A DNA stretch of 64,000 nucleotides from assembly GCA_009840635.1 (NCBI GenBank), contig VXNL01000047.1, forward strand, positions 510-64,509. The letters are read 5' to 3'. Both the position numbers and the translations under genes were made by a program. The stretch comes from Acidobacteriota bacterium (lineage in GTDB: Bacteria; Acidobacteriota; Vicinamibacteria; Marinacidobacterales; Marinacidobacteraceae). This document shows, piece by piece, positions 17,641 to 54,775 of the stretch. The notes below the pieces were generated by a model. The model was not told the DNA's origin and made no database searches. It saw only the letters and a list, made by a program, of their open reading frames with translations. Every line of letters starts with the position of its first letter. Position 1 is the stretch's first letter.

Positions 17641-17821
17641 CTTCCCGTCTGCCCGTTGAAGTCCGTCCTTCCCGGTTGCCGGAGCCTTCGTGGTTTCCAC
17701 GGGGCTTTCATAGGTTTGGGCCGGTTGACACGCCCTTCCCGAGTCCATACGGTTCGGGATTGGACCGGAGGCGGTTTCGGTCGTCTTCGGGGTCCGCGAC
17801 TTCCATCTTCAGGGGGTTTTG

Positions 17822-20710: not shown

Positions 20711-22870
20711 ATGTTCTCCGGCGTGAAAGGCCCGTTCCCGAAGCGCCTCGCGCTCGCGCTGGCGTTTGCGGCGCTGTCATTCACTGCGGCGCCCGCGCAG
20801 GACGGGTCGGATATCCGCAAGCAGGAAGCCGAGGCGCACTTCCAGCACGGCCTGCGCATGGTCGGCCTCCGGAACAACGACCGGGCCATCGAGCTCTTCC
20901 AGTACGCGATCGCGCTGGATCCGGACCATGCGGGCGCCCACTTTTACGTGGGCCTCGCCTACATCCAGCGCGGTTACACCAGCCTGCGGCGCGCCGACCA
21001 CCACCTCTCGCGCGCCATCGCGATTGACGGCTCGAACCCCAGGCAGTACCACTGGCGGGGCATCGCCCGATTGCGGCTCGGGGACTACCCGGCGGCCACC
21101 GCGGACTTCGAGGTGGTGCTGCGCGAGACCCCGGACAGCGCCACCACCCTGCGGGCGCTCGGGGCCGCGCTGCTCCGGATGGGCGCTCCCGGCCCGGCTG
21201 GCGCCGCACTACGCCAGGCGGTCGACCTCGAGCCCGAGTTGCTCGAGACGCGCTGGAACCTGATGGTGGCGGCGGAGCGCGCCGGCGACGATCCGGACGC
21301 GCTTCCGGAGCGCTACCGGCTCGACATCCCGGATCGTGGCCGAGAGTCTCCGTTCCGCTTCGAGGAAGTCTCGGCCGAGATCGGGATCGAACGCTGGTCG
21401 CGCGCCCGGGGCAGCGGGTGGGACGACTTCGACGGTGACGGGGACCTCGATCTGGTTGCCCTCGGTATCCGGGACCCGCACGCGCTCTACCGCAACCGGC
21501 TCGTGGAGGACGGCGACGCCACCTTCGAGGCAGCCTCGCTCGACGCGGCGCTCTTCGATCCGCGCGGCGGCTGGTCGGCGCTCTTCTTCGACTACGACCG
21601 GGACGGCGATCCCGATCTCCATGTCACGCGGGACGGCTGGGACGGTGAGGACGCGAACAGCCTCTATCGAAACGATGGCGGCCGCTTCGTGGACGTGGCG
21701 GCTGCCGCCGGGGTCGCGAGCTCGGCGGACGGGTTTACGGCAACGGTCGCCGACGTGAACCGGGACGGTCTGCTCGACCTCTACGTCGCCAACGGGGTGG
21801 CGACCCGGGGAGGCGCCCCCAACGAACTCTTTCTGGGCGCGCCGGACGGCCGTTTCGTCGAGCGCGGGGAGGCGATGGGGGTGGCGGACCACGGCCGCTC
21901 CGTCGGATCCGCCTTCGGGGACTACGACGGTGACGGCTGGCCCGACCTGCTGGTCGTCAACTTCTTCGACGGCCCCGTGCTCTACCGGAACCTGGAGGGC
22001 GGCGGTTTCGAGGACGTCTCGGCGCGAGCCGGCATCGCCGCTCCGCACGAGGGGTTCGTCGGGTTCTTCTTCGACTACGACAACGACGGCTGGCTGGATG
22101 TCTTCGTCGTGGGATTCGCGTCCGACATGGAGGTCGCCCTCCAGAGCCGGATCGAAGGCAGGGCGGTCCACGAAGGGAGCCGGCTGGCGCTCTACCGCAA
22201 CGACCGCGACGGCACCTTCACCGACGTCACGACCGAAGCCGGGCTCTCCTGGAACCTGGGCGCCATGGCGGCCACCTTCGGCGACTACGATAACGACGGC
22301 TGGCTGGACATCTTCATCGGCGTCGGCGCGCCGCCCATGGAGCGGTTCGAGGCGAACCGGCTGTTCCGCAACCTTGGTGACGGAACGTTCGCCGACGTCA
22401 GCGCCGCGGCCGGCGTGGACGACCTGGGGAAGGGGCACGGCGCGACCTTCGCCGACCCCGATCACGACGGCGACCTGGACCTCTTCGTGCCCATCGGGGG
22501 CGCGTTTCCGGGCGATCGCCAGCGAAGCCGCTTCTACCGGAACCCCGCGGCGCAGCTCCCGCATCCGAACGGCTGGCTACACATCCTGCTCCGGGCCACG
22601 AGTCTCCATCCCGACGCCGTGGGCGCCCAAGTCGCGGTCCGGGTCACCGACGCTCCGCAGGCGCCGGTGCAACTCCAGGAGGTCGCGGTCGGCGGGGGCT
22701 TTGGGGTGACGCCGAGTCCGATCCTGGAGTTCGGCCTCGGGCAGCACCAGACGGTGGCGGAGGTCACGATCCGGTGGCCGGGCGGCGGTCATCGCGTGCT
22801 GCGGAGCGTCCCCGCCAACCAGCGGATCCTGGTGGTCGAGGACCAACCGGGGTATCAGGTTCTGGAGTAG
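20711..22870 (+). CDS. CRTAC1-family protein: N-terminal TPR, FG-GAP/VCBS repeats, C-terminal ASPIC/UnbV domain
   Basis: 719 aa with a signal peptide, a TPR region (aa 30-190), repeated FGDYDGDGWPDL-like FG-GAP motifs and a UnbV_ASPIC-like C-terminus. Confidence 0.85.
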   Translation: MFSGVKGPFPKRLALALAFAALSFTAAPAQDGSDIRKQEAEAHFQHGLRMVGLRNNDRAIELFQYAIALDPDHAGAHFYVGLAYIQRGYTSLRRADHHLSRAIAIDGSNPRQYHWRGIARLRLGDYPAATADFEVVLRETPDSATTLRALGAALLRMGAPGPAGAALRQAVDLEPELLETRWNLMVAAERAGDDPDALPERYRLDIPDRGRESPFRFEEVSAEIGIERWSRARGSGWDDFDGDGDLDLVALGIRDPHALYRNRLVEDGDATFEAASLDAALFDPRGGWSALFFDYDRDGDPDLHVTRDGWDGEDANSLYRNDGGRFVDVAAAAGVASSADGFTATVADVNRDGLLDLYVANGVATRGGAPNELFLGAPDGRFVERGEAMGVADHGRSVGSAFGDYDGDGWPDLLVVNFFDGPVLYRNLEGGGFEDVSARAGIAAPHEGFVGFFFDYDNDGWLDVFVVGFASDMEVALQSRIEGRAVHEGSRLALYRNDRDGTFTDVTTEAGLSWNLGAMAATFGDYDNDGWLDIFIGVGAPPMERFEANRLFRNLGDGTFADVSAAAGVDDLGKGHGATFADPDHDGDLDLFVPIGGAFPGDRQRSRFYRNPAAQLPHPNGWLHILLRATSLHPDAVGAQVAVRVTDAPQAPVQLQEVAVGGGFGVTPSPILEFGLGQHQTVAEVTIRWPGGGHRVLRSVPANQRILVVEDQPGYQVLE

Positions 22871-36953: not shown

Positions 36954-38978
<2,025 letters not shown>

Positions 38979-39028
38979 CCAGCCCGCATGAACACCGCGA
39001 CTAGCGCTGCCAGCTCCGGATAAGCCGA

Positions 39029-40618
39029 ATGTTCGAGAACAACCCCTTCAACTTCCCGATCCTGTCGCTGGTGGTCTTCTTCCCGGCGATCGCGGCGCTC
39101 TTCATCCTGTTCTTCGTCAAGAAGACCGATGAGGACCGGGTCCGCTGGCTCGCGAACGGCGCGGCGCTCATCGGATTCCTGATCTCCCTGCCGCTGTGGT
39201 TCGCGTTCGACGCGGCCGGGCCGCAGTTCCAGTTCGGAGAGCGCTACGAGTGGATCCCGAGCATCGGCGTCGAATACAACCTCGGCCTCGACGGAATCAG
39301 CCTGCTGCTGGTCCTCATGACCACGCTGCTCGGCTTCATCGCCATCCTGTCGTCGTGGAAGGCGGTCACCGAGCGCGTCAAGCAGTACTACGTCTTCCTG
39401 CTGTTGCTCCAGACGGGAATGCTCGGCGTCTTCGTGGCGCTCGACTTCTTCCTGTTCTACGTGTTCTGGGAAGTGATGCTGGTCCCGATGTACTTCCTTA
39501 TCGGGGTCTGGGGCGGCCCGAGGAAGCTTTACGCGGCCATCAAGTTCTTCCTCTACACGCTGGTGGGAAGCGTCCTGATGCTGCTCGGCATCCTGGCGCT
39601 CTACTTCGCCCACCATGGGGCGACCGGCGAATACACCTTCGACCTGCTCCGCCTCATGGAGACCTCCTACGCGTCGGGTCTCCAGTTCTGGGTGTTCCTC
39701 GCCTTCTTCATCGGGTTCGCGATCAAGGTCCCGATGTTCCCGTTCCACACTTGGCTTCCCGACGCCCACGTCGAGGCGCCCACCGCGGGTTCGGTCATCC
39801 TGGCCGGGGTGCTGCTGAAGATGGGGACCTACGGTTTCGTGCGGTTCTCGATTCCGCTCCTGCCCGAGGCGAGCCGCGAAGCGGTGTGGTGGGTCGCCAC
39901 CCTCGCGATCATCGGGATCATCTACGGAGCCCTCGTCGCTCTGGTCCAGAAGGACTGGAAGAGCCTCGTCGCCTACAGCTCGGTGAGCCACCTCGGCTTC
40001 GTGATGCTCGGCGTCTTCGCGCTGAACACCCTGGGTCTCGAGGGTGGCATCCTCCAGATGATCAACCACGGTCTCTCCACGGGAGGACTCTTCCTGCTCG
40101 TCGGCATCATGTACGAGCAGCGCCACACGCGGGACATCGCGGCCTACGGCGGGATCGCCAAGGTGGTGCCGAAGTACGCCGCGCTCTTCCTGATCATCGC
40201 GCTCGCCTCCATGGGTCTTCCGATGCTCAACGGCTTCATCGGCGAGTTCCTGATCCTGCAGGGCGTCTTCCAGGTGGACTGGGTGTATGCCGCGTTCGCC
40301 GTCTCGGGCATCGTGCTCGGCGCCGCCTATCTGCTGTGGCTCTACCAGCGGGTCATGTTCGGCAAGCTGGACAAGGAAGAGAACAAGACGCTCGCCGATG
40401 TGACCAGCCGCGAGAACGCCACCCTGGTCCCGATCGTCGCGCTCTGCATCTTCATCGGCGTCTATCCCAAGCCGTTCCTCGAGAAGCTCGCCGTTCCGGT
40501 GGCGGCCATCGTCGAGCGCGTCTCTCCCGAGAGCGCGCAGACCGCCGAGGCGCCGCCGATGCCGGCCGAGGTGGAGGAAGAGCTTCGGGGCGCCGCTCCC
40601 GTTCCGAGCGACGACTGA
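39029..40618 (+). CDS. nuoM: NADH-quinone oxidoreductase subunit M
   Basis: 529 aa with NuoM/ND4 conserved blocks ([40 protein letters not shown]). Confidence 0.9.
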
Positions 40619-40651
40619 TCCCGCGGCTGTTCCACTTGCCTCGGCGGGAGA

Positions 40652-40918
40652 ATGCCGCCGATGACCCCGGAGCCTCCGGTGGCGCCGCGTGCCCGGCTGC
40701 TGACCCTGCTGAGCCTCGGCTTTTCGGTGCCCATGGCGATCGTGATCGGCGGCGGGTCCGGCTGGCTGCTCGACCGCTGGCTCGGAACGGAGCCCTGGCT
40801 CTTCCTGGTCTTCCTGGCCTTCGGAATCGTGGCCGGGCTCAGGAACGTGGTTCGGGCCGCCTCCGCGGTGGCGGACAGCGACGCGCCGCCTGAGGATTCT
40901 GGGGGAGAGGGGTCATGA
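40652..40918 (+). CDS. AtpZ/AtpI-family small membrane protein (putative F0 assembly/accessory)
   Basis: 88 aa with two TM helices, immediately upstream of the atpI-like gene and atpB. Confidence 0.6.
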   Translation: MPPMTPEPPVAPRARLLTLLSLGFSVPMAIVIGGGSGWLLDRWLGTEPWLFLVFLAFGIVAGLRNVVRAASAVADSDAPPEDSGGEGS

Positions 40919-41364
40919 CGGATTCGGGGAGGCCGGCGGAAGCGAGCCGCGAAGAGCGGCTCACCCGGCGCGCGCTAGCCCTCGGAGCGGCCGCCGCGCT
41001 GATCGCACTTGCCTTCGGCCCCCGGATCGGGCTCTCGGTGCTGGGCGGGGCCACCATCTCCGTCCTCAACATCGTCGCGCTCCGCCGGGTGGCCGCCGGT
41101 CTGACCGCCGACCACTCCGCCCGGTCGGCCATCGTGCTGGCCGCGCTCACCGGGGTTCGTTATCTCTTGCTCGGGGGCGCGCTGGTTGCGATAATTGCCG
41201 TCTGGAACGCCGACGTGATCGGCGTCGTGTGCGGGTTGGGCGCGCCGAACCTGGCCGTCCTGCTGGAACTGCGAAACGGGGGCCTCCGGGGCCTTCGTAC
41301 ACCGCAGGCCTCTCCTCCCCCGGATGATCCGGAGGACAGGGAGAACCCCCCGCCAGGCGTCTGA
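40915..41364 (+). CDS. atpI: ATP synthase protein I-like membrane protein
   Basis: 149 aa, with an ATGA overlap onto the previous gene, four hydrophobic segments, and a position directly before atpB. Confidence 0.55.
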   Translation: MTDSGRPAEASREERLTRRALALGAAAALIALAFGPRIGLSVLGGATISVLNIVALRRVAAGLTADHSARSAIVLAALTGVRYLLLGGALVAIIAVWNADVIGVVCGLGAPNLAVLLELRNGGLRGLRTPQASPPPDDPEDRENPPPGV

Positions 41365-41387
41365 CCGCACGTACTCCCGGCCCGACC

Positions 41388-42077
41388 ATGGAAATCCACC
41401 ACTACTCAGCCTTCACCCTCTGGATCGAGGAGTGGTTCCACGTCCATCCGCCGGACCACGTCGTGATGGCGGTCTTCGTGGCGCTTCTCCTGTCCGGGTT
41501 CGCGATCTTTTTCCGCCGCCGGATTTCGGTGGAGAATCCCGGCCGGCTCCAACTGATCCTCGAGGCGCTCGTCGGGGGCTTGCTCTCGCTCCTGCGTGAG
41601 AACGTGGGTCCGAGGGGCCGGCGGTTCCTGGGCCTGGTGGGCACGCTCGCCCTCTTCATCTGGATCAGCAATCTGTGCGGGCTGGTGCCCTATCTCTCAT
41701 CCCCCACGGTGAGCATCAACATGCCCGTGGGATGCGCCATCGTCGCGTTCCTCTACTACAACTACCAGGGGATCCGGGCCCACGGAGCGAAGAAGTACTT
41801 CGCCCACTTCCTCGGGCCGAGCCCCTGGCTGGCGATCGTGATGCTGCCGGTCGAGATCATCAGCCATGTCAGCCGCATCCTCTCGCTTTCGGTCCGGCTC
41901 TTCGGAAACATTTTCGGCGAAGAGCTGGTCGTCATCGTGCTGGCGTTCCTGATCCCGTTCGTGGTGCCGCTCCCGATGATGGCCTTCGGCGTCTTCGGCA
42001 GCACGCTGCAGGCATTCGTTTTCACCATGCTCACTGTCATCTATCTCGGCGGCGCGGTCGCGGCCGAGGAACATTGA
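41388..42077 (+). CDS. atpB: F0F1 ATP synthase subunit a
   Basis: 229 aa with the conserved a-subunit arginine region LSLSVRLFGNIFGEEL. Confidence 0.9.
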   Translation: MEIHHYSAFTLWIEEWFHVHPPDHVVMAVFVALLLSGFAIFFRRRISVENPGRLQLILEALVGGLLSLLRENVGPRGRRFLGLVGTLALFIWISNLCGLVPYLSSPTVSINMPVGCAIVAFLYYNYQGIRAHGAKKYFAHFLGPSPWLAIVMLPVEIISHVSRILSLSVRLFGNIFGEELVVIVLAFLIPFVVPLPMMAFGVFGSTLQAFVFTMLTVIYLGGAVAAEEH

Positions 42078-42112
42078 TTCGGCCGCGTAATCAGTTCAAG
42101 GAGAAAAGAATC

Positions 42113-42436
42113 GTGTCCAAGAAGTTTCGGACGACCCTGCTGGCTGGCCTCGGCGTGCTCGCCGCGTCCCCGGCCTTCGCCCAAGGGGCCTGGGACCCGG
42201 TAGTCAGTCAGTGGGCGCTGATCTCGGCAGGTGGCGCGATCGCCATCGCCGCCGCCTTCGGCGCCACCGCGCAGGGACGCGCGGTGGTCGGCGCCTGCGA
42301 GAGCCTCGCCCGGAACCCCGGCGCCGCGCCGCAGATCCGCTTCTCGCTGCTTCTCGGTCTGGTGCTGATCGAGTCCCTCGTCATCTACGCCTTCGTCACC
42401 GCGCTCATCATCTTCTTCGTTCTCTGGAACGGCTGA
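42113..42436 (+). CDS. atpE: F0F1 ATP synthase subunit c, with an N-terminal signal-peptide-like extension
   Basis: GTG at 42113 with an AAGGAGAAAAG SD 8 nt upstream. The c-subunit hairpin GAIAIAAAFGATAQGRAVVGACESLARNPG...LLLGLVLIESLVIYAFVTALIIFFV is present. An extra N-terminal ~35 aa reads KKFRTTLLAGLGVLAASPAFAQGA. Confidence 0.88.
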   Translation: MSKKFRTTLLAGLGVLAASPAFAQGAWDPVVSQWALISAGGAIAIAAAFGATAQGRAVVGACESLARNPGAAPQIRFSLLLGLVLIESLVIYAFVTALIIFFVLWNG

Positions 42437-42445
42437 GTCGGAACT

Positions 42446-42478
42446 GGTGTGAAACGGGCGAGCAGCCCGTTTCACACC
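42446..42478 (+). terminator. rho-independent terminator after atpE
   Basis: ggtgtgaaacgggc-GAGCA-gcccgtttcacacc forms a perfect 14-bp stem, starting 10 nt after the atpE stop. Confidence 0.6.
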
Positions 42479-42479
42479 A

Positions 42480-42670
42480 TTCCGACTCTGGGGGAACGCC
42501 GGTCTCCAGACCGGCAGAGCCGTTCGCGTCCGGCCGCCATGGATCTGGCGGTAGCCCAGATCCATGGCGACCGGCGCGTCGGCGAATTCGCACCCCCTCG
42601 ATCGCCTTCACCGCGACTACGGCTTGGAACGCCGGTCTCTAGACCGGCACGCGCGGCGCTTCGCGCCGCG
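42480..42670. repeat. array of REP-like palindromes (family A variants) in the atpE-mtnA intergenic gap
   Basis: Hairpins seen: ccggtctccagaccgg, ccatggatctggcggtagcccagatccatgg, ggcttggaacgccggtctctagaccggcac, gcggcgcttcgcgccgc. Confidence 0.45.
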
Positions 42671-42731
42671 TCGCAACCCCAATCATCCTCAAGGCGCGCA
42701 CCACTCCCCACCCCGCTGGTAGGGTGAACCC

Positions 42732-43781
42732 ATGGTCCGCCCCTTCCGCTGGGACCCCGAGCGCAAGGTCCTCCACCTCCTGGACCAGCGCCGGCTCCCG
42801 GCCGAGGAGGTGTGGATCGAGCGCGCCGAAGCGCATGAGGTCGCGGACGCCATTCGGGACATGGTGGTCCGCGGGGCACCGGCCATCGGGATCGTCGCCG
42901 CCTACGCGGTGGTGCTGGGGTTCGCCCGTGACGCCGGAGACTCGCCTGCGGCTCGGTTCGAGGACCTGGCCGCTGCACTGCTGAATACCCGGCCAACCGC
43001 CGTCAACCTGCGCGCCGCCATCGTGCGCATGCGCACCCGGTTGGAAACGCTATCCGCCGCTTCGGCAGCGGGACGGGTTCGCGGCCTGGAGGCGGAGGCG
43101 GACCGCATCGCCGCCGAGGACCTCGAAGCCAACCGCCGCCTGGGCACGCTCGGGGCCAGCCTGCTGCGGCCGGCGGGGAAGAGGGCCCGCGTCCTCACCC
43201 ACTGCAACGCGGGGAGCCTCGCCACCTCCGGATACGGGACCGCTCTCGGGATCGTCCGGGCGCTGGCCGAGTCGGGCCGCGAGGTCGAGGTGTTCGCTCC
43301 CGAAACCCGCCCGTATCTGCAGGGCGCCCGGCTCACCGCGTGGGAACTGATGGCGGACGGAATCCCGGTCACCCTCGTCACCGACGGAATGGTCGGTTCC
43401 CTGCTCGCTGGCGGAGACATGGATGCGGTGGTCGTGGGGGCCGACCGGATCGCGGCGAACGGGGATTCGGCCAACAAGATCGGCACTTACCAGGCCGCGG
43501 TCCTCGCGAAGGAGCACGGTGTGCCGTTCCTGGTGGCCGCGCCCTTCTCGAGCGTGGATCTCGAGACGCCGACCGGTGCGGAGATCCCCATCGAGGAGCG
43601 CCGCCCCGAGGAGATCGTCGAGATCGTCGGAAGGCGCATCGCGCCGGAGGGCGTGTCCGTCTGGAATCCGGCCTTCGACGTGACTCCGGCCGGCTACATC
43701 ACTGCAATCGTGACCGAGCGTGGGATTGCGCACCCGCCTTTTGCGGCTTCGCTGGCGCGTCTGGGCAGGACCCGGGAATAA
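42732..43781 (+). CDS. mtnA: S-methyl-5-thioribose-1-phosphate isomerase (eIF-2B-like family)
   Basis: 349 aa. Matches MtnA conserved blocks: RGAPAIG, THCNAGSLATSGYGTALG, GADRIAANGDSANKIGTY. Confidence 0.88.
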   Translation: MVRPFRWDPERKVLHLLDQRRLPAEEVWIERAEAHEVADAIRDMVVRGAPAIGIVAAYAVVLGFARDAGDSPAARFEDLAAALLNTRPTAVNLRAAIVRMRTRLETLSAASAAGRVRGLEAEADRIAAEDLEANRRLGTLGASLLRPAGKRARVLTHCNAGSLATSGYGTALGIVRALAESGREVEVFAPETRPYLQGARLTAWELMADGIPVTLVTDGMVGSLLAGGDMDAVVVGADRIAANGDSANKIGTYQAAVLAKEHGVPFLVAAPFSSVDLETPTGAEIPIEERRPEEIVEIVGRRIAPEGVSVWNPAFDVTPAGYITAIVTERGIAHPPFAASLARLGRTRE

Positions 43782-43790
43782 CCTAACGGC

Positions 43791-44855
43791 ATGCTGATCC
43801 TGGGGATCGAGACCTCCTGCGACGAGACCTCCGCGGCGGTGGTCGAAGACGGCCGGCGCATCCTCTCGAACGTCGTCTCGTCCCAGGTCGCCCAGCACGC
43901 GCAGTTCGGAGGGGTGGTGCCCGAGATCGCGTCCCGGCAGCACCTCCTCAACCTGTCGCCGGTGGTGCGGCAGGCGCTCACTGAGGCCGAGGTCGGCCTC
44001 GATGACATCGAGGCGGTCGCGGTCACGAACGGCCCCGGCCTCATCGGGGCCCTGCTGGCGGGTGTCTCCTTCGCCAAGGCGTTCGCGTTCGCGCGCGGGA
44101 TTCCGCTGGTGGGGGTGGATCACATCGAAGGGCATATCCGCGCGTGCTACCTCGAAGGCGGCGAGGTTCCCCACCCGGCGCTCGCGCTCGTGGTCTCCGG
44201 GGGGCACACGAACCTCTTCCTGCTCGAAGGCGAGAGTTCCTACCGGCTGCTCGGCAAGACCCGCGATGACGCCGCGGGCGAGGCCTACGACAAGCTCGCC
44301 AAGCGACTCGGTCTCGGGTATCCGGGCGGTCCGATCCTCGACCGGTTGGCGCAGCGGGGCGATGCGAACCGCCACCTCTTCTCGCTCCCGCACTTTTCGG
44401 ACGGAGCCAAGCTGGACTTCAGTTTCTCGGGCCTCAAGACCCAGGTCCTCCGGCTCATCGAGCACGAGAGCATCGAGCCGCTGGCCGACGGCGACGATCC
44501 TTTCGCCCGCGAAGACCTCCGCGATCTGGCCGCCAGCTTCCAGTCGGCGGTCGTCCGCGCCCTGCGCCGCTCGGTGGACCGGGCGCTTCGCATGTTGGAA
44601 GCCAGCGCCGTGCTGTTGACGGGCGGGGTCGCCGCCAACTCGGCTCTGCGGGCCAACTTCCAGGCTCTCGGCGAGAAACGCGGCCTGCCCGTCTTCTATC
44701 CCAGCGTCGCCCTCTCCACCGACAACGCCGCCATGATCGCGGCGGCCGGCCACCTGGCGCTTCTCCGCGGCGAAGTGGCGGGTCCGGACCTGACGGCGGA
44801 CACCGAACTGCGGCTGGGCGAGACCGGACCGCGCCGGTCCCGGCGTCACCGCTGA
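43791..44855 (+). CDS. tsaD: tRNA N6-adenosine threonylcarbamoyltransferase
   Basis: 354 aa with Kae1/TsaD motifs: GIETSCDETS, GVDHIEGH, VVSGGHT, GGVAANSALR. Confidence 0.9.
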   Translation: MLILGIETSCDETSAAVVEDGRRILSNVVSSQVAQHAQFGGVVPEIASRQHLLNLSPVVRQALTEAEVGLDDIEAVAVTNGPGLIGALLAGVSFAKAFAFARGIPLVGVDHIEGHIRACYLEGGEVPHPALALVVSGGHTNLFLLEGESSYRLLGKTRDDAAGEAYDKLAKRLGLGYPGGPILDRLAQRGDANRHLFSLPHFSDGAKLDFSFSGLKTQVLRLIEHESIEPLADGDDPFAREDLRDLAASFQSAVVRALRRSVDRALRMLEASAVLLTGGVAANSALRANFQALGEKRGLPVFYPSVALSTDNAAMIAAAGHLALLRGEVAGPDLTADTELRLGETGPRRSRRHR

Positions 44856-44863
44856 ACTCCGGA

Positions 44864-46429
44864 ATGTCCGAGGCGCGGCCCGACCCCGGCCGGGTCACTG
44901 CCGTCTACCGTGTCCAGCCGGGCTCCGCCACGCCCGAGGATCGGGCCCGCATGATCGCGGTCGAGCAGACCGTCGAGGTCCCGGAAGCACTCATACCGCC
45001 GCACATCGAGAAGGAGATCGTCGGGCGGGTCGAATCCGTAACGCCCGACCCCGAGGTCCCGGGAGCGAGCCGCGTCACGATCAGCTACGGGGCGGAACTT
45101 GCCGCGAACCTCTTCGATTTACTGGCGGTCGCGATCGGCAACGCGCCGATGTACGGCGGGGTGCGGCTCGTGGGACTCGAGCCGCCGCGGGCGCTACTCG
45201 AGTCTCTCCCCGGCCCCAATCACGGCGTCGAGGGTGTGCGGCGGATGTGCGGCGTCCTGGGACGGCCGCTGCTGGCCACCGCGCTCAAACCGCAGGGCTC
45301 GACCGTGTCCGAGCTGGCTTCCATGGGGGAGGCGTTCGCCCGCGGCGGCGGCGACCTGGTCAAGGACGACAACAACATCACCGATGACTTCGAGGGTTTT
45401 CGAGACCGGGTCACGGCCTGCGCGGAGGCCGTGGAACGCGGCAACCAGACCACCGGCCGCCGGTGCCTCTACGTCCCGCACGCCGGCGCCCGCGCCGATG
45501 AGCTCGAACGGTACGTCGAGTTCGTCGCCGAGATCGGGCTTCCCGGAGTGCTGATCTGTCCGATGATCACCGGACTCGACACGATGCGCGCCCTGGCAGA
45601 GCGCTATCCGCTCATCTTCATGGCCCATCCGTCCCTGACCGGGGTCTATACCCACGCCCCTCAGAACGGGGTGGCCCACGGCGTCCTCTTCGGGACCCTG
45701 TTCCGGCTGGCTGGCGCCGACATCTCGGTGTTTCCGGACGCCCGCGGCCGGTTCCAGTTCGCCAAGGCTCAGTGCGAAGCGATCACCGAGCGGCTCCGCG
45801 AGCCGCTCGGCGCGCTCCGTCCGGCGTGGCCGGCCCCAACCGGCGGGATCGGACCCGCGGATGTCGCGCGGGTCTGCGGTATCTACGGTCCCGACACCGT
45901 GTTACTGATCGGCGGTGCCCTGCTCGGCCATCCGGACGGAATCGAGGCGGGAACCCGCGAGATCCTCGACCGGATTCGCTCGGTCCACCCGGAGGTTTCG
46001 ATAGAGCCGTCGGAGCCGCCGCGGCTTTCGCTCCCCGAACCGCGGCGGCTCGCCTTCCGCCGGGACTGGAACTGGGAGGGCCGGGACAGTTCCCCATACA
46101 AGGACGCCGGGGACCTCACCTTCCGGGGCGTGCGCCGGGTGGAGCTCGTCGGGAAGTTCGGGGAGCGCACCCGCTGCGACCTGCGCTACTTCGAAGTGGA
46201 ACCCGGCGGTCACACGAGCTTCGAAAAACACCTCCACACCCACGTCGTGATCGGCGCCCGCGGGGAGGGCGTCCTGCTGCTCGCAGACCGGCGGATGCCA
46301 CTCCGTCACCTCGACGTCGCCTGCGTGGGTCCGCTGGAGGCCCACCAGTTGCGGAACGAGTCCGACGAGCCGTTCGGCTTCTTCTGCGTGGTGGACCACG
46401 ACCGCGACCGCCCGTTGCGGGCCGAGTAA
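44864..46429 (+). CDS. RuBisCO-like protein (form IV RLP) fused to a C-terminal cupin domain
   Basis: 521 aa. Residues ~1-395 are RuBisCO large-subunit-like, including the lysine-region motif GGDLVKDDNNITDD and CPMITGLDTMRALAE. Residues ~400-521 carry cupin-like motifs (FEKHLHTHVVIGARGEG and GPLEAHQLRNE). It lies directly downstream of mtnA-tsaD. Confidence 0.8.
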   Translation: MSEARPDPGRVTAVYRVQPGSATPEDRARMIAVEQTVEVPEALIPPHIEKEIVGRVESVTPDPEVPGASRVTISYGAELAANLFDLLAVAIGNAPMYGGVRLVGLEPPRALLESLPGPNHGVEGVRRMCGVLGRPLLATALKPQGSTVSELASMGEAFARGGGDLVKDDNNITDDFEGFRDRVTACAEAVERGNQTTGRRCLYVPHAGARADELERYVEFVAEIGLPGVLICPMITGLDTMRALAERYPLIFMAHPSLTGVYTHAPQNGVAHGVLFGTLFRLAGADISVFPDARGRFQFAKAQCEAITERLREPLGALRPAWPAPTGGIGPADVARVCGIYGPDTVLLIGGALLGHPDGIEAGTREILDRIRSVHPEVSIEPSEPPRLSLPEPRRLAFRRDWNWEGRDSSPYKDAGDLTFRGVRRVELVGKFGERTRCDLRYFEVEPGGHTSFEKHLHTHVVIGARGEGVLLLADRRMPLRHLDVACVGPLEAHQLRNESDEPFGFFCVVDHDRDRPLRAE

Positions 46430-46542
46430 GGGAGGGAGCGCCGGACGGGTCCCGGACTCGGGGAAACCGGATCAGTCCCGACGGGGTCGCCGCCGGCCCG
46501 GCTCGTGACCGGCTACGGGCGGCCGGACACGACCGCGAGCCG

Positions 46543-47139
46543 CTAGCGCCGGCTGAGTAGATGTTGAACCTGTTCGGGAGAGAGTTGCTTTTCGCTTCCC
46601 AGCACCTGGGTGACGACCGCAATTTCGGCGGAGCGTTCCAGGGTCTCCATCCGGTCGAAAGCGTTCTGCAGGTCGCGGCCCATGGTGAGGGCGCCGTGGT
46701 TGGCGAGCAGGATGGCGTTCGAGTCGGCCGCGGCCTCGCCGACGGCGGCCGCCAGATCGGACGACGACGGCGCGTGGTATCCGACAGTGACGATGTGACC
46801 GAGGTCCACCAGCACCTCGGCGAGGGAATGGCGGCAGAGATCCACGCCGGCGGCGGCAAAGCCGGTGGCACACACCGGATGGGCGTGGACGATCGCCTGG
46901 ATGTCCTGCCGGACGTCATAGATGGCGAGGTGCACCTTGATCTCGCTGCTCATCCGGTGACGGCCGCCAATCTGGCGTCCCGCGAGGTCGCAGCGGACGA
47001 GGTCGTCTGGCGTCAGTTCGCCCTTCCGGAAGCCGCTCGGGGTACAGAGGAGTTCGTCGCCTCCGATCCGGACGCTCGCATTGCCTTCGCGGGCGACAAC
47101 GAGTCGGGCCGCGGCCAGCTTCCGTGTCACGCCGCACAT
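46543..47139 (-). CDS. class II aldolase/adducin-family protein (fuculose-phosphate aldolase / MtnB-like)
   Basis: Start at the internal ATG (CAT at 47137-47139). Motifs: AREGNASVRIGGDELLCTPSG and the Zn-binding pair AIVHAHP. The upstream 75 aa of the ORF are low-complexity. A GTG about 21 nt further upstream is also possible. Confidence 0.75.
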   Translation of the reverse strand: MCGVTRKLAAARLVVAREGNASVRIGGDELLCTPSGFRKGELTPDDLVRCDLAGRQIGGRHRMSSEIKVHLAIYDVRQDIQAIVHAHPVCATGFAAAGVDLCRHSLAEVLVDLGHIVTVGYHAPSSSDLAAAVGEAAADSNAILLANHGALTMGRDLQNAFDRMETLERSAEIAVVTQVLGSEKQLSPEQVQHLLSRR

Positions 47140-47308
47140 CTCATGCGCCAGGGCGTCGACCTGCGGACCCTGCCAGTCGCGTTCCGGTCGCGGGGCGGTA
47201 CCGTCGTCCAGTGGGGACGAGACGCCCAGGGGATTCCCGCTCAAGATTTTCAGCGTATCACCCGGGGGCTCCGTCCGAGCGTCCCGGTTTCTCGCGCTCG
47301 GCGCGGCG

Positions 47309-50300
47309 TTACCTTCCGGTGGGGCTGATTTCCTCGGCAAGCTCCCGGAACCGGCAGAAGGCATTGGCCAGCCGCATCTGGTGCGGCGTCTTGCAGTCGG
47401 GAAAAAAGAGTTCCGGGCTCGCGACCACCACTGCGAGGCAGCGGGCGCGCGAGGTGGCCACGTTGAGGCGGTTCAGCGAGTAGAGGAAGTCCATCCCTCG
47501 CGGGGCGGCGTCCGGCGTCGAGGTGGCGAGCGAGTAGAAGACCACCGGGGCTTCCTGTCCCTGGAACTTGTCCACGGTTCCCACCCGAGCCCGTCCGTCG
47601 AGGATCCCGGCGAGGCGGTCCACCTGGGCGTTGTAGGGGGCGACGATCAGGATGTCCTCCGGGGTGATCCGCCGGGCCACTCCGCCGGCGTCCGTCCAGG
47701 AAGCGGCATCGAGCAGCCCGGCGACCAGCGACGCGATGCGTTCGGCCTCTTCCGGCGACTCGCGCTGGTTGCCGTCGTGCTCGACGGGGACGAAACGGAG
47801 TCCGGCGCCAGGGAGCGGACCTTCGGTGATCGCCTGCCGCTCCAGTCCGGGCCGCGCCCCGAGTCGGCCGTCGTAGAAGAGTTCCGAGGTGAACCGGCCG
47901 ATCTCGGGGTGCATCCGCCAGGTGTGGTCGAGGAAGAGGCCGCGTTCCGGTGGAATCGTCTTCTCCTCACCGAGCAGGTGCCCGAGCGCCGAGGCGGACG
48001 ATCCCTCCGGATGGATCCCCTGGGTGACCTGATCGAGTTGGCGCGGATCGCCCAGCAACACGAGGCTCTCGGCGGCCGGCGCGGAGGTGAGCGCGCCCGC
48101 GAGGGAGAACTGTCCGGCCTCGTCCACCACCAGTACGTCCACCGCGTCCTGCATGTCCTCCCGCGCCCAGACCCAGGTCGTGCCCGCGATCAGCCGCACA
48201 TCGGGGTCTCTGACGGCGTCGACCGCCTTTCCGGAACCCGCCTTCCGTTCGATGCGGGGATCGGCGCAGCCCGCGTGCGAGACGATCTGAACTCCCTGGA
48301 ACGTGACGCCCTCCTCATCGGCGGCGGCGCAGACCTGGTCGAGCAGGTTGGTGATGACCTGGTGGCTCTGCGCCGTCACCCCCACCCGCCGGTCGGCCGC
48401 CAGGAGCGCGGTGATGACGCGGGCGCCGAGGTAGGTCTTGCCGCTTCCCGGCGGCCCCTGCACCGGCAGCACCTCCCGGTCGAGATCGAGCGCGAGGCGC
48501 CTGGCCGCGTGAACCAGGTCTTCCCCGGGCTGTAGCAGGGGTGTGCCGTTGCCGCCGTTTCGCGGCGGAACCCGCCGGAGCAGATCGAACGCGGCGCGCC
48601 GCGGGTGGCCGTCCGGGAATCCACCCTCGGCAACCAGCTCGCCGAGACGGAACAGGGAATCGCGCATCGTGCGGGTGGGCAGAACGTCCACGGGGACAAG
48701 CGCCCCTGGATGGGGCTGCTGCACCTTCTGGCGGCTGCGCTTCAGGATCAGCGCGTCCTCGGTCATCCCGAAGACCTCGCCCGGCGACGCCCCCGTCGCG
48801 GGGTCGCGGACGCTCGTGCCGACGTCGATTCCATGGTCCTGGGGCGGAAACCGGTAGCGGTGGAGTACGGACTGCTTCTCGGGACCGATCTCCGCCTCGA
48901 ACGTCAGACCACCCAGCGTCGTCCGTTCCTCGAAGAGTTGCTCGGCATCCAGCCCGCAGAGGTGGAAGAACTCCCACCATGCCGACTTGTCCTCCCGCCG
49001 GTGGTAGTCGAGGAGGTATCTCAGGAGTTGCCGAGCCTCGGATTCGTCCGGTGGACAGTCGGACACCAGGCGCGTTCCAAGGTGTTCGACCCGCGCCGCG
49101 GCCTCGCCCTGCTCGTGTTCCTTTTCCGGCGCGATCTCGACGGTTCGGCGCCGCCGCGGGCCGATCTCGCTGGTGAGTTCCCGGCGGAGGTCCTCGAGCC
49201 AGCCGTGGAGCGCCAGCGTGGAAAGGCAATCCTCGCGGTTGTAACGCCGGACGACCTCGAGGTCGCCCGGTTCCGCCCGGCCGCCCGAGTCCAGTGCGGC
49301 ATCCGTCCGGGCACGCGCCCGGATGGACTCGACGAGGTCCTGTTTCCGGGTGAACCCGTAAAACCGTTCCATCTCCTTGATGGAGTAGCTCTCCACCGAC
49401 GCAACCAGCCCCTGCCGGACCACCTGGAGGAGGTCCACGAACACCTGGTGGCGAAGGAGCACGTCCATCGCGTCCTCGCGGCTCGCGTAGCGGCTCATGA
49501 GGCGCTTCAGCGCCCCTGTCTCGTAGCCCCCGTAGTGGTAGATGTGGAGACCTCCGAACTGTTCCCGGCGTTCGGCCACCAGGTCCATGAAGGACTCGAA
49601 GACCTCGCGCTCTCCGCCGCGGTCGAAAGCCCAGCGGTCGTCATAGTCACCGTCCCGATCCACGAAGCCGAACAGGTACTCGAGCCCGCCGTCCGTGGTC
49701 GGCCGGGAACTCTCGATGTCGAAGAAGAGATCACCTTCGGAGGGTTCGGGGAGCGCCAGCAGACCGCGGTCCTCCTCCGGCGGTGCGGTCAGATCCCGAA
49801 AGGGCCGGCCCGACGCGCGCTCGGTGAGCTGCGCCTTCGCTTGGCGATGGATGCGCTTCAGTGAAGCTGGTTGGACGCCGTCGAGCGGCGGGTCGAGGGG
49901 CAGGGCGACCCCGGCCAGAGCCGCCAGGGTCGTGATGCCGCGGTCCTCCAGGCGCTGGCGCTGGTGCCGGGAGGCTCCGGCAACGAGCGAGAGATGGTCA
50001 TCCGTCCGTCGCCGATCGCGGCACACCTGGTTCCAGTCGCAGCGGGGACACAGGTCCACGGGCTCCGGATAGGTCGGCCCCGGGTCGGCGCAATGGCCCT
50101 CGAACTGGCGCCTCAGCGCGCGCTCGAACGCCGCGAAGTCCGCAACGCGAAAAGGCTCGAGCTCGCCGGCGCCGCCGAGCGCGAGGTGCATTTCGACTGG
50201 CGCCGTTCCCTGCACACGCTCCAGCAGCCACGAATACACCGCGATCTGGAGGACGGCGTCCGCCTTCGCGACCGTGGCGAGCTTGGCGTCCACCACCTCG

Positions 50301-50689
50301 TAGGACCAGTCACCGAGCGCGCTCGGGCGCGGGGCCCGAACCAGGAAATCGGGGTAGCCGCCCCACTTCCCACGGCCGAGCCGCCCCTGGTGGATCACCT
50401 CCACGCCGCGCCGCATAGCGTCGAGGGTCCGCTCGTTTCGTTCCGCGAAACCCTCGGACGCGCCGATCTCCTCGACCGTGAACCCCTCCATCCGGTATCG
50501 CTCGAGCATTCGGGCCTCGTGCTCCCGCCCGGCCTCGGCCAGCGCGTCGCGGCGGGGGTCTTCGAAGATGAGTGGTGGGGACCTCTCGCCGAGCTTGACC
50601 CCGCGGTCGAGGCTCGTCAGGTGGCGGCAGGCGAGGAACCGGCTGAGATCGGTGGGAGCGAAGAAGAGTTTGCCGTCCCTCTGGCGCAT
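47309..50689 (-). CDS. RecB-like (TM0106/Cas4-type PD-(D/E)xK, Cys-cluster) nuclease fused to an SF1B Upf1/Dna2-like helicase; Nhi-like architecture
   Basis: 1126 aa. The N-terminal ~450 aa have DAKL, QIAVY and a C..CPRCDWNQVC Cys cluster. The C-terminal ~500 aa have Walker A GPPGSGKT, VVDEAGQ, LLGDPRQL, RMHPEIGRFTSELFY, DKFQGQE and NVATSRAR. Confidence 0.85.
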   Translation of the reverse strand: MRQRDGKLFFAPTDLSRFLACRHLTSLDRGVKLGERSPPLIFEDPRRDALAEAGREHEARMLERYRMEGFTVEEIGASEGFAERNERTLDAMRRGVEVIHQGRLGRGKWGGYPDFLVRAPRPSALGDWSYEVVDAKLATVAKADAVLQIAVYSWLLERVQGTAPVEMHLALGGAGELEPFRVADFAAFERALRRQFEGHCADPGPTYPEPVDLCPRCDWNQVCRDRRRTDDHLSLVAGASRHQRQRLEDRGITTLAALAGVALPLDPPLDGVQPASLKRIHRQAKAQLTERASGRPFRDLTAPPEEDRGLLALPEPSEGDLFFDIESSRPTTDGGLEYLFGFVDRDGDYDDRWAFDRGGEREVFESFMDLVAERREQFGGLHIYHYGGYETGALKRLMSRYASREDAMDVLLRHQVFVDLLQVVRQGLVASVESYSIKEMERFYGFTRKQDLVESIRARARTDAALDSGGRAEPGDLEVVRRYNREDCLSTLALHGWLEDLRRELTSEIGPRRRRTVEIAPEKEHEQGEAAARVEHLGTRLVSDCPPDESEARQLLRYLLDYHRREDKSAWWEFFHLCGLDAEQLFEERTTLGGLTFEAEIGPEKQSVLHRYRFPPQDHGIDVGTSVRDPATGASPGEVFGMTEDALILKRSRQKVQQPHPGALVPVDVLPTRTMRDSLFRLGELVAEGGFPDGHPRRAAFDLLRRVPPRNGGNGTPLLQPGEDLVHAARRLALDLDREVLPVQGPPGSGKTYLGARVITALLAADRRVGVTAQSHQVITNLLDQVCAAADEEGVTFQGVQIVSHAGCADPRIERKAGSGKAVDAVRDPDVRLIAGTTWVWAREDMQDAVDVLVVDEAGQFSLAGALTSAPAAESLVLLGDPRQLDQVTQGIHPEGSSASALGHLLGEEKTIPPERGLFLDHTWRMHPEIGRFTSELFYDGRLGARPGLERQAITEGPLPGAGLRFVPVEHDGNQRESPEEAERIASLVAGLLDAASWTDAGGVARRITPEDILIVAPYNAQVDRLAGILDGRARVGTVDKFQGQEAPVVFYSLATSTPDAAPRGMDFLYSLNRLNVATSRARCLAVVVASPELFFPDCKTPHQMRLANAFCRFRELAEEISPTGR

Positions 50690-51098: not shown

Positions 51099-51392
51099 CT
51101 ACTGCCGGCCAGCCCAGTAGGTGGGTCTTCGTTTCGTGTGCATGGTGGCGAGGACCCGAAGGTGGTCGCCGGTCACCCTGTAGAGGACGGCATACGGAAA
51201 ACCCCCGGCGAGTTGCCGACGGATCTCTTCTCGTACGACTCGGCCCGCGTCCGGAAACGCGCGAACGGACTCCGCGCACGTCTCGACCGCGGCCAGGAAC
51301 AGCGATCCCAACCCGGCACTTCGGGTCTCGTACTAGTGCGCCGCCTCCGCGAGTTCGAGCTCGGCCAGACGGTGAAACGAGAGTTCTCGCAA
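51099..51392 (-). pseudogene. parE: ParE/RelE-family toxin disrupted by an in-frame amber stop (TAG at about 51333-51335)
   Basis: The ORF track gives only 70 aa (51099..51311), matching a ParE C-terminus (FPYAVLYRVTGDHLRVLATMH). The same frame continues upstream as LRELSFHRLAELELAEAAH*YETRSAG, a typical ParE N-terminus, broken by TAG where a conserved Tyr is expected. The antitoxin ORF lies in the same frame directly upstream. Confidence 0.65.
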
Positions 51393-54105: not shown

Positions 54106-54510
54106 CTACTGGCGGAAGGGATCGAGCGTCGGGACGCCGAACGGCTCGAAGTCCCGGACGTTCCGGGTCACGACCGTCAGGCGGTGCACGTTTGCCGTGG
54201 CGGCAATCAGCGCGTCGGTGATGAGCGTGTCGGACTTGCGATGCATGAGGCGCGCCCATTCCCGGAACACCGGACCGTCCTGGGCCAGAACCTGGTACGT
54301 GGCGAGCACGCCGTCGAGCCAAGCCTCCAGGTCCCCCGCCTTGGCGGGGTCCTGTTCTCGCGTGATCTCGATGCCGGCCTGAATCTCACCGATCGTGACG
54401 CCGGACAGGTGGAGCCTCTCCGGTGAAACGTCCTGAATCCAGCCCAGGACCGCCGGGTGAGGCCGTGGGCGCCGTAACTCCGAAACGACGTTCGTGTCCA
54501 GCAGATACAC
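54106..54510 (-). CDS. vapC: type II toxin VapC (PIN-domain ribonuclease)
   Basis: 134 aa with an MYLLDTNVVSE PIN N-terminus and the conserved D...E...D...D acidic residues. Its start is 5 nt after the antitoxin stop. Confidence 0.85.
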   Translation of the reverse strand: MYLLDTNVVSELRRPRPHPAVLGWIQDVSPERLHLSGVTIGEIQAGIEITREQDPAKAGDLEAWLDGVLATYQVLAQDGPVFREWARLMHRKSDTLITDALIAATANVHRLTVVTRNVRDFEPFGVPTLDPFRQ

Positions 54511-54514
54511 CGGG

Positions 54515-54775
54515 TTACTCGAACCGGGGCGGCGGACGGCGGGCGAGTGGCCTGCGTTCCGGCGCGAGGGACTCGATGCGGGGCGCCGGCGCGAGGAGCA
54601 GCTCCTTCAAGTTCGGCTTCGTCGTTCGCTGCAGGCCTTCCCACTGCTCCATCGGCACAACCACCGCTGTCTCAACGCCTCTTCGAGTCACGACCTGGGG
54701 GCCCTCCGCCACGGCTTTTTCGAGCAGTTCGCTGAACCGCGCCTTGGCCGTCTGGACCTGCCACCGATTGCTCAT
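54515..54775 (-). CDS. type II antitoxin, Phd/YefM family (VapB partner)
   Basis: Internal Met start with sequence MSNRWQVQTAKARFSELLEKAVAEGPQVVTRRG. The 20 upstream codons of the ORF look non-coding. Confidence 0.75.
   Translation of the reverse strand: MSNRWQVQTAKARFSELLEKAVAEGPQVVTRRGVETAVVVPMEQWEGLQRTTKPNLKELLLAPAPRIESLAPERRPLARRPPPRFE

Follow-up and report, generated by a model that had tools for sequence, protein, structure and literature searches.

In a stretch of 64,000 nucleotides from an Acidobacteriota bacterium (assembly GCA_009840635.1, contig VXNL01000047.1, positions 510 to 64,509), hereafter called the window, we found a plus-strand gene at 44864-46429 in which a RuBisCO-like protein (RLP; about 375 aa) is joined through a linker (about 25 aa) to a cupin (about 120 aa), giving a single protein of 521 aa. 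Judging from the two domains, we favor, with some reserve, the reading that this fusion protein would be a bifunctional enzyme of the methylthioadenosine (MTA)-isoprenoid shunt, i.e. a 5-methylthio-D-ribulose-1-phosphate (MTRu-1-P) 1,3-isomerase and a 1-methylthioxylulose-5-phosphate (MTXu-5-P) methylsulfurylase in one. As both families are wider than the characterized pair, sequence membership alone leaves the substrate unfixed; what points specifically to the MTA-isoprenoid shunt is that both domains occur together, here in covalent form.

In Rhodospirillum rubrum, two enzymes encoded by separate, neighboring genes turn MTA, a by-product of S-adenosylmethionine (SAM), into an isoprenoid precursor and methanethiol. 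The DeepYkr-type RLP acts on MTRu-1-P to give MTXu-5-P, plus 1-methylthioribulose-5-phosphate (MTRu-5-P), and the thiol co-substrate is glutathione. To our knowledge, R. rubrum and Rhodopseudomonas palustris are so far the only organisms in which the shunt has been demonstrated. The split gene organization and the pathway are described in PMC5893883, PMC4958253 and PMC4334135, and the R. rubrum chemistry, in which MTRu-1-P is isomerized and MTXu-5-P is dethiomethylated with a thiol to DXP (1-deoxy-D-xylulose-5-phosphate), in PMC5893883 and PMC4334135.

According to the proposed mechanism, MtnA, encoded two genes upstream of the fusion gene, would supply MTRu-1-P. The RLP domain would carry out the 1,3-isomerization of MTRu-1-P to MTXu-5-P at a carbamylated-lysine/aspartate metal site (K167/D169), and the C-terminal, metal-dependent cupin would perform the thiol-dependent dethiomethylation of MTXu-5-P to DXP and a methylthiol adduct, after which methanethiol could return into methionine. 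Both catalytic activities, together with the substrate, the thiol, the metal and any channeling, are thus what we infer for the fusion protein. Domain identities, clade placement, motif conservation, gene order and distribution were observed directly, and are described below.

Structure and authenticity of the fusion gene

The open reading frame (ORF) starts with ATG and encodes, in order, a form IV RuBisCO-like domain (residues 1-375; 44864-45988) of the short type that includes the PDB structure 3qfw and is putatively DeepYkr-type, the inter-domain linker (residues 376-399, PEVSIEPSEPPRLSLPEPRRLAFR; 45989-46060), and a cupin domain of the family of Rru_A2000, the MTXu-5-P methylsulfurylase of R. 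rubrum (residues 400-521; 46061-46426). With Pfam, residues 123-365 were identified as RuBisCO_large (PF00016) with 82.8 bits against a cutoff of 30.1. The ORF and both domains are confirmed as they had been proposed in the initial annotation, and so is the extra length claimed there: the protein exceeds its closest stand-alone relatives (365-395 aa) by about 130-155 aa and MtnW-type RLPs (409-425 aa) by about 110 aa. An AlphaFold model of the full protein (mean predicted local distance difference test, pLDDT, 88.7; predicted TM-score, pTM, 0.74) has two well-predicted domains flanking the linker, which itself has a low pLDDT of 63-78. Both the sequence and the length of this linker vary among fused homologs.

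The split genes of R. palustris overlap by 14 nt, so that one indel could join them, and a sequencing or assembly error that merged two adjacent genes would give the same architecture. However, the identical 521-aa sequence was found on 10 contigs from independent NCBI, ENA and Logan assemblies, e.g. on VXVZ01000017.1 (GCA_009836105.1), and the architecture recurs, with a genuine linker of about 25 aa, in at least 120 homologous clusters at 90% identity from several phyla. Query coverage was 94-100% in all 120 homolog clusters listed, and both Pfam domains were present in 119 of them. We accordingly regard the chance of such an error as negligible and reject it: the RLP-cupin fusion is real, and no assembly or frameshift artefact.

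The RuBisCO-like domain

The N-terminal domain is a member of the form IV RuBisCO superfamily, i.e. a RuBisCO-like protein. When the two parts of the protein were searched separately, as the initial annotation had suggested, the cupin part led to 3ibm, 3jzv and 3kgz (see below) and the RLP part to 3qfw, which was its best match in the PDB (205 bits), ahead of 4nas (165 bits), the MtnW proteins of Bacillus subtilis and Geobacillus kaustophilus (about 144 bits) and, also behind, type III RuBisCOs. The structure 3qfw is the RLP of R. palustris BisB18, whose gene product on CP000301.1 (P0270) is identical to it at 100%. In Foldseek, the model of the fusion protein fitted 3qfw best (target-normalized TM-score 0.93, root-mean-square deviation 1.8 Å), and solved RLPs and RuBisCOs in general with TM-scores of 0.8-0.93. 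One member of the 3qfw family, P0340, carries the JGI name 'S-methyl-5-thioribulose 1-phosphate isomerase'.

Clade placement was analyzed with a neighbor-joining tree rooted on the type III RuBisCO 8dht, for which 15 fused and 20 short stand-alone RLPs were drawn at random, with Rru_A1998 left out. The RLP domain, 3qfw and the sampled fused and short stand-alone RLPs formed one clade in 95 of 100 bootstraps, and the YkrW/MtnW references 4nas, 2zvi and 2oek formed a clade of their own in all 100. A placement of the RLP among the YkrW enolases, which the initial annotation had named as grounds for abandoning its proposal, is thereby contradicted, and the residues and family models described below agree with the tree.

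The motif GGDLVKDDNN (residues 162-171; 45347-45376), correctly recognized from the start as the RuBisCO active-site lysine region, holds K167, the equivalent of the carbamylated lysine of RuBisCO, followed by D168, D169 and N170. K167, D168 and D169 do not vary among 31 fused proteins, while position 170 is H, Q or N in the RLP clade and E in MtnW and RuBisCO. At G92-N93 (45137-45142), Asn stands where MtnW enolases have Lys: the Asn is found in the window protein, in 3qfw and in 129 of 138 representatives, the Lys in 4nas, 2zvi and 2oek. The clade signature G295-R296-F297 (45746-45754) is invariant within the fused family, and reads G-S-V in MtnW and G-K-L in the RuBisCO 8dht. Taken over residues 34, 35, 93, 170, 296, 297 and 327, the window protein has E, Q, N, N, R, F and G, 3qfw has E, Q, N, H, R, F and G, and the MtnW enolases have G, L, K, E, S, V and A. 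Relative to RuBisCO 8dht, the RLP domain is changed from E to N at 170, from R to P at 256, from K to R at 296 and from S to P at 325, and the fusion protein scores far under the cutoffs of the RuBisCO NCBIfam models.

The closest characterized system is the pair Rru_A1998/RPA2169, i.e. the MTRu-1-P 1,3-isomerases of R. rubrum and R. palustris, for which 3qfw serves as a structural stand-in. These are likewise short RLPs of about 370 aa with the same cupin family on the C-terminal side. With 3qfw, the fusion protein has E34, Q35, N93, K142, K167, D168, D169, a non-Glu residue 170, H255-P256, R296-F297 and G327-G328 in common, and Q144 is also identical, whereas residue 170 is Asn here and His in 3qfw. 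The systems further differ in that the cupin comes from a separate, overlapping gene in the characterized pair and is covalently attached here, and in that the former are from Alphaproteobacteria and the fusion protein, known from sequence alone, is from Acidobacteriota.

MtnW/YkrW proteins (2zvi of B. subtilis, 2oek of G. kaustophilus and 4nas of A. acidocaldarius) are 2,3-diketo-5-methylthiopentyl-1-phosphate enolases. They share with the fusion protein the RuBisCO-like fold, the K-D-D core of the metal site and a methionine-salvage context, and they reach similar Foldseek E-values against its model. As MtnW is an RLP and MtnD a cupin, the gene could in principle be a classical salvage fusion, with an MtnW-type enolase, an MtnD-type cupin and, as MtnB, the class II aldolase-fold product of the adjoining gene. 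The top NCBIfam model for the whole protein is indeed an MtnW model, but the score of 203 bits is far from its cutoff of 409, as is that of a second MtnW model (157 against 513.6). The MtnW motifs GK, KDDE, G-S-V and P-x-A-G are GN, KDDN, G-R-F and P-x-G-G in the fusion protein, so that the MtnW Lys is replaced by Asn, and the MtnW clade is separate. Acireductone dioxygenase (ARD), the family of MtnD, was neither matched in Pfam at E <= 0.1 nor named among the PDB matches of the cupin domain at E <= 1, and the aldolase is under the mtnB cutoff (71 against 137 bits) and nearer to FucA and DrdA. A classical salvage fusion is therefore highly improbable, and was rejected on residues, tree and model cutoffs.

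The cupin domain

By its sequence, the C-terminal domain is a cupin of the methylsulfurylase family (Rru_A2000-type). Searched with phmmer against the PDB, residues 381-521 gave 3ibm of Halorhodospira halophila (Hhal_0468; E 2e-30), 3jzv, named 'Rru_A2000' (E 4.8e-20, spanning positions 17-137 of the 141-residue query), and 3kgz of R. palustris (RPA2170; E 2.5e-18), and generic Cupin_2 proteins only after a gap, at E >= 5e-6. The domain is 46% identical to 3ibm, 36% to 3jzv and 35% to 3kgz. Identity between 3kgz and 3jzv is 55.8%, which agrees with the published value of 56% between Rru_A2000 and RPA2170, the R. palustris methylsulfurylase that has been validated genetically (PMC5893883). No NCBIfam model matched the cupin domain.

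Modeled alone, the domain forms an all-beta barrel (pLDDT 78, core above 88), and it is all-beta in the full-length AlphaFold model as well. With the model of the domain as Foldseek query, 3jzv ranked first, 3kgz second and 3ibm ninth, and all listed matches were cupins. Hence both the cupin fold and the similarity to the methylsulfurylase, whose absence would have spoken against the initial annotation, were found, and the positions of the HLHTH and P...H...N motifs reported there for a C-terminal cupin of about 120 aa hold.

The first motif is a variant of cupin motif 1, E454-x-H456-x-H458-x-H460 (EKHLHTH, residues 454-460; 46223-46243), which corresponds to ERHQHAH in 3jzv and has equivalents in 3ibm and 3kgz. 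Going by the general cupin motif, these four residues are the putative metal ligands. Cupin motif 2 is P490...H494-Q495...N498 (PLEAHQLRN, residues 490-498; 46331-46357), with an H-Q pair that is conserved in all three structures. A family signature at the C-terminus, GF(F/L)C...RD(R/K)P (46376-46414), includes the invariant C508 and is shared with Rru_A2000 (GFLCMVNAERDKP), 3ibm and 3kgz. Altogether, the elements that are invariant in the 31 fused proteins and common to 3jzv, 3ibm and 3kgz are W..R....YK, LRYFE, PGG, E-x-H-x-H-x-H, R466-G467, D484, P490...H494-Q495..N498, GF.C508 and R514-D515-x-P517. The homology to the Rru_A2000-type cupins thus extends over the full length, from the N-terminal W..R..YK segment over E-x-H-x-H-x-H and HQ..N to the Cys of GF.C and the RD.P tail. 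The fused domain differs from them in being tethered to an RLP and only 35-46% identical, and the solved stand-alone cupins (chains of 156-167 aa) have 30-40 more residues at the C-terminus.

Sensing is common among Cupin_2 domains, and a weak Pfam match to AraC_binding (15.5 bits, under the cutoff) could indicate that only the RLP is catalytic and that the cupin is a ligand-sensing or regulatory module, as in AraC- and XRE-cupin proteins. This seems improbable, as the nearest homologs of the domain are stand-alone enzymes and not regulator domains, as neither the putative metal ligands nor the family Cys vary across phyla, and as the fusion protein lacks a DNA-binding domain. Furthermore, the cupin is better conserved between phyla than the RLP (46-71% against 43-48% identity to the respective domain of the window protein).

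Split counterparts and origin of the fusion

The 3qfw gene of R. palustris BisB18 (368 aa) has a separate Cupin_2 gene of 166 aa behind it, with an overlap of 14 nt, and the product of the latter is 75% identical to 3kgz and 63% to Rru_A2000. Two similarly organized genes occur in R. palustris, Meiothermus, Nitrococcus mobilis and H. halophila (PMC4958253). The fusion protein keeps the order RLP-then-cupin, and its poorly conserved linker of about 25 residues is followed by a whole stand-alone cupin, including the N-terminal segment. Most likely, therefore, the fusion gene represents the gene pair of R. rubrum and R. palustris, RLP first and cupin second, joined with its order unchanged. In the RLP tree, fused forms stand mixed among unfused ones, and fused cupins are scattered over several places in the cupin tree, which hints at more than one fusion or fission event, although neither tree is resolved enough for a count. 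The fusion probably serves stoichiometric co-expression, and possibly also the hand-over of the intermediate between the two sites. Consecutive MTA-recycling steps on one polypeptide are found in Tetrahymena MtnBD (PMC3698126), which is biochemically characterized, and in the bifunctional MtnC as well, but these have other folds and perform other steps in another branch of the pathway.

Distribution and annotation

Out of 1.84 billion representatives searched with residues 1-385 of the RLP, 269 matched at E <= 1e-30. Among the best 150 of these (representatives at 50% identity), 30 carried a cupin and about 97 were stand-alone RLPs shorter than 430 aa, mostly 365-395 aa. That both domains are kept across phyla, with 30 of the 150 nearest representatives fused, argues for joint selection on the pair. 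Fused genes were found in 13 species-level genomes of Acidobacteriota, including Vicinamibacteria and 'Ca. Marinacidobacterium' (76-90% identity), but also in Planctomycetota, Hydrogenedentes, Gammaproteobacteria, Nitrospirota (including 'Ca. Magnetoovum') and unclassified bacteria. All carriers found are metagenome-assembled genomes (MAGs) or uncultured.

The searchable literature yielded no description of the RLP-cupin fusion, which may still have had an earlier passing mention, and the databases no functional name for it, although the two-domain Pfam assignment is already precomputed in the database for fused proteins. The architecture may thus count as undescribed, as the initial annotation had it, but not as rare, being common in metagenomes. 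Source names of fused homologs are 'RuBisCO large subunit C-terminal-like domain-containing protein', 'ribulose-bisphosphate carboxylase large chain', 'RuBisCO large subunit' and 'cupin domain-containing protein'.

No fusions of MtnA with an RLP were found among the relatives; longer ones carry an inositol-monophosphatase, a transketolase_N or an extra cupin domain instead. In the clade of short RLPs, P0129 (726 aa) has an inositol-monophosphatase domain and an RLP, P0245 (730 aa) an RLP and a Transketolase_N/weak DXP_synthase_N domain, and P0258 (781 aa) an RLP and two cupin domains, while the RLP-cupin form is long in P0233 and P0240 (773-785 aa). These five may be multi-domain genes, as predicted, or merged gene calls.

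Gene neighborhood

Upstream of the fusion gene on the plus strand are mtnA, encoding S-methyl-5-thioribose-1-phosphate isomerase (42732-43781; TIGR00512 with 434 bits against a cutoff of 279, and PF01008), and tsaD, for tRNA t6A synthesis (43791-44855; TIGR03723 with 402 bits against 296), which has no known functional link to its two neighbors. The spacing is 9 nt between mtnA and tsaD and 8 nt between tsaD and the fusion gene. A promoter and terminator scan of 42300-46700 returned no matches, which is uninformative at a genome GC content of about 69%. The order of mtnA, tsaD and fusion gene is kept in all 13 Vicinamibacteria-type loci and in that of P0024, a 71% identical homolog, with variable insertions between mtnA and tsaD; in the Vicinamibacteria loci, tsaD is always directly upstream of the fusion gene.

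The plus-strand region ahead of mtnA (36954-42436) holds two Proton_antipo_M (NuoL/M-like) genes, followed by atpZ-like, atpI, atpB and atpE. The rest of the F-ATPase genes are missing after atpE, where mtnA is next, so that the atp genes are split here, and this arrangement is conserved in relatives. In the P0024 locus (L088, 887-4366), a defence-like set of GmrSD_N and AAA_15-DUF3696 genes is situated between atpE and mtnA, and an SprT-like gene between mtnA and tsaD, which suggests that the region tolerates insertions.

Downstream, on the minus strand and thus convergent, is a class II aldolase gene of 273 aa (46543-47364; PF00596 with 152 bits), whose product is FucA/DrdA/Ald2-like. The initial annotation had seen an MtnB-like aldolase at 46543-47139. 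The convergent class II aldolase is there, but its ORF reaches 47364, sharing 56 nt with the end of the next gene; an internal Met (start at 47139) would give an aldolase of 198 aa that begins shortly before the Pfam domain. MtnB was rejected as its identity, since the mtnB model TIGR03328 gave 71 bits against a cutoff of 137, while FucA-, epimerase- and decarboxylase-type models gave 105-109 bits and the best PDB match was 6btd, i.e. the 5-deoxyribulose-1-phosphate aldolase DrdA (77 bits, with FucA at 73). The gene is conserved only in the three closest relatives (loci L001, L002 and L008). It could encode an aldolase of the dihydroxyacetone phosphate (DHAP) shunt working on the same MtnA product, by analogy with Ald2, which has this role in R. 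rubrum and R. palustris (PMC5893883).

Wider families and alternative substrates

Several observations count against the function that we propose. With each domain only about 35-37% identical to its nearest characterized or validated homolog, i.e. about 36% for the RLP domain against 3qfw and 35-36% for the cupin domain against 3kgz and Rru_A2000, the distances are such that function can shift in both superfamilies. N170 is rare for its clade, where H or Q is usual, and the Cupin_2 match (residues 442-510; 26.5 bits) is slightly below the Pfam gathering cutoff of 27.2. The label 'DeepYkr-type' is itself reached by way of 3qfw, as this would be the R. palustris RLP1-type protein, a type that has been placed in the DeepYkr clade (PMC5893883).

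The bona fide mtnA two genes upstream, correctly noted from the outset, is compatible with the proposed function, yet as evidence it weighs little. In Vicinamibacteria, the unrelated atp genes and tsaD are equally syntenic, and the proximity of mtnA may therefore be inherited gene order rather than a functional link. This synteny is lineage-specific and absent in other phyla: no MTA-pathway gene family was present in any of the seven annotated neighborhoods of fused genes outside Vicinamibacteria, and tblastn found no relative of the mtnA, tsaD or aldolase of the window within 6 kb in six further cross-phylum loci. An MTA-type functional neighborhood conserved across phyla was consequently rejected. 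The rest of the window contains no mtnP, mtnN, mtnK, dxr or O-acetylhomoserine sulfhydrylase (metY) gene.

Both families also extend beyond the pair. A genome scan revealed about 60 stand-alone cupins of the Rru_A2000 family (loci L020-L080) in Nitrospirota, Binatia, Gemmatimonadota, Kryptoniota and Desulfuromonadales, 40-51% identical to the fused domain, and none of these had an RLP within 6 kb. Instead, a gene for a Zn-dependent dehydrogenase of the medium-chain dehydrogenase/reductase (MDR) type, of about 348 aa, was found immediately upstream in 46 of the roughly 60 loci, mostly on the same strand (e.g. the dehydrogenase at 143-1189 of L068 and the cupin at 5938-6411 of L045). This enzyme is Tdh/IolM-like and under all NCBIfam cutoffs, and together the two look like an uncharacterized conserved gene pair. 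Mean identity to Rru_A2000 is 39% for the dehydrogenase-linked cupins and 36% for the fused domains, in a star-like cupin tree. The dehydrogenase-linked cupins thus being equally near to Rru_A2000, the chemistry of the family may exceed that of a methylsulfurylase. The closest stand-alone RLPs, P0121 (locus L090) and P0122 (L091), are 47% identical and have no adjacent cupin. P0121 follows a short-chain dehydrogenase/reductase (SDR) gene and is near an Ldh_2-family gene, a context which suggests that part of the RLP clade belongs to another pathway.

The main rival reading, possible if distinctly less than probable, is that the same architecture serves another substrate or chemistry. The RLP would then isomerize or enolize another 5-substituted pentulose phosphate, e.g. 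5-deoxyribulose-1-phosphate from 5'-deoxyadenosine, or some other sugar phosphate, and the cupin would catalyze another metal-dependent step, e.g. an epimerization, a C-S/C-X cleavage or a step on the ribulose-5-phosphate side product of the RLP. Such a reading gains from the low identity to characterized enzymes, from the lack of MTA genes beside fused genes in the loci examined outside Vicinamibacteria, from a 55-member cupin clade that pairs with the Zn-dehydrogenase without an RLP, and from stand-alone RLPs of the same clade that occur with SDR and Ldh_2 genes and not with a cupin. The inositol-monophosphatase and transketolase_N fusions in the clade hint at broader sugar-phosphate roles as well. 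On the other hand, RLP and Rru_A2000-type cupin is the sole combination whose joint function has been demonstrated, the two parts follow each other as in the validated split pair, the family motifs are all kept in both domains, and mtnA is near the fusion gene in this lineage.

A more general variant, to which we assign a rather small probability, is that the RLP-cupin module is not dedicated to MTA, but has a broader chemistry of which the fusion is one specialized form. It is based on the fused genes standing alone in most phyla, on the RLPs without a cupin and on the cupins paired with a dehydrogenase. Conceivable chemistries are a general, thiol-dependent cleavage of C-S bonds adjacent to a carbonyl, or the processing of 5-deoxy-pentulose phosphates from radical-SAM waste. 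Were this true, both families would need re-annotation, and these cupins might include the one for the methanethiol-releasing step that is missing from the aerobic DHAP shunt.

Other genes in the window

Directly downstream of the aldolase gene, a minus-strand gene (47309-50689) encodes a protein of 1126 aa with an RNase_H_2/RecB-like nuclease and the superfamily-1 helicase domains AAA_11, AAA_30 and AAA_12. Further downstream of the locus are small toxin-antitoxin-type genes on the minus strand (51099-51311, 54106-54510 and 54515-54775), i.e. a faint ParE-like toxin and a PIN-domain toxin with a PhdYeFM antitoxin. At 15154-17460, also on the minus strand, is a gene for a 768-aa protein with an N-terminal sulfatase and a C-terminal TPR array, near genes for a TonB-dependent-receptor-like outer-membrane protein (17819-20653) and an FG-GAP/ASPIC protein (20711-22870).

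Implications

The kind of system described here is already known, and it holds no surprising new mechanism; what is new is the fused form and the wider likely range of the shunt. The RuBisCO-type labels on fused proteins constitute an annotation gap that can mislead carbon-fixation surveys. If the proposed function is true, the fusion would amount to a Rosetta-stone confirmation of RLP and cupin acting together, and would offer both a single-gene module for engineering the conversion of MTA to DXP and a natural test system for the direct transfer of a labile intermediate between active sites. Lastly, if the protein is active as predicted, the MTA-isoprenoid shunt would extend to Acidobacteriota, including sponge-associated Vicinamibacteria-like MAGs, and to Nitrospirota, Planctomycetota and uncultured Gammaproteobacteria, and the carriers of the fusion would gain a DXS-independent source of DXP as well as a biological source of methanethiol.

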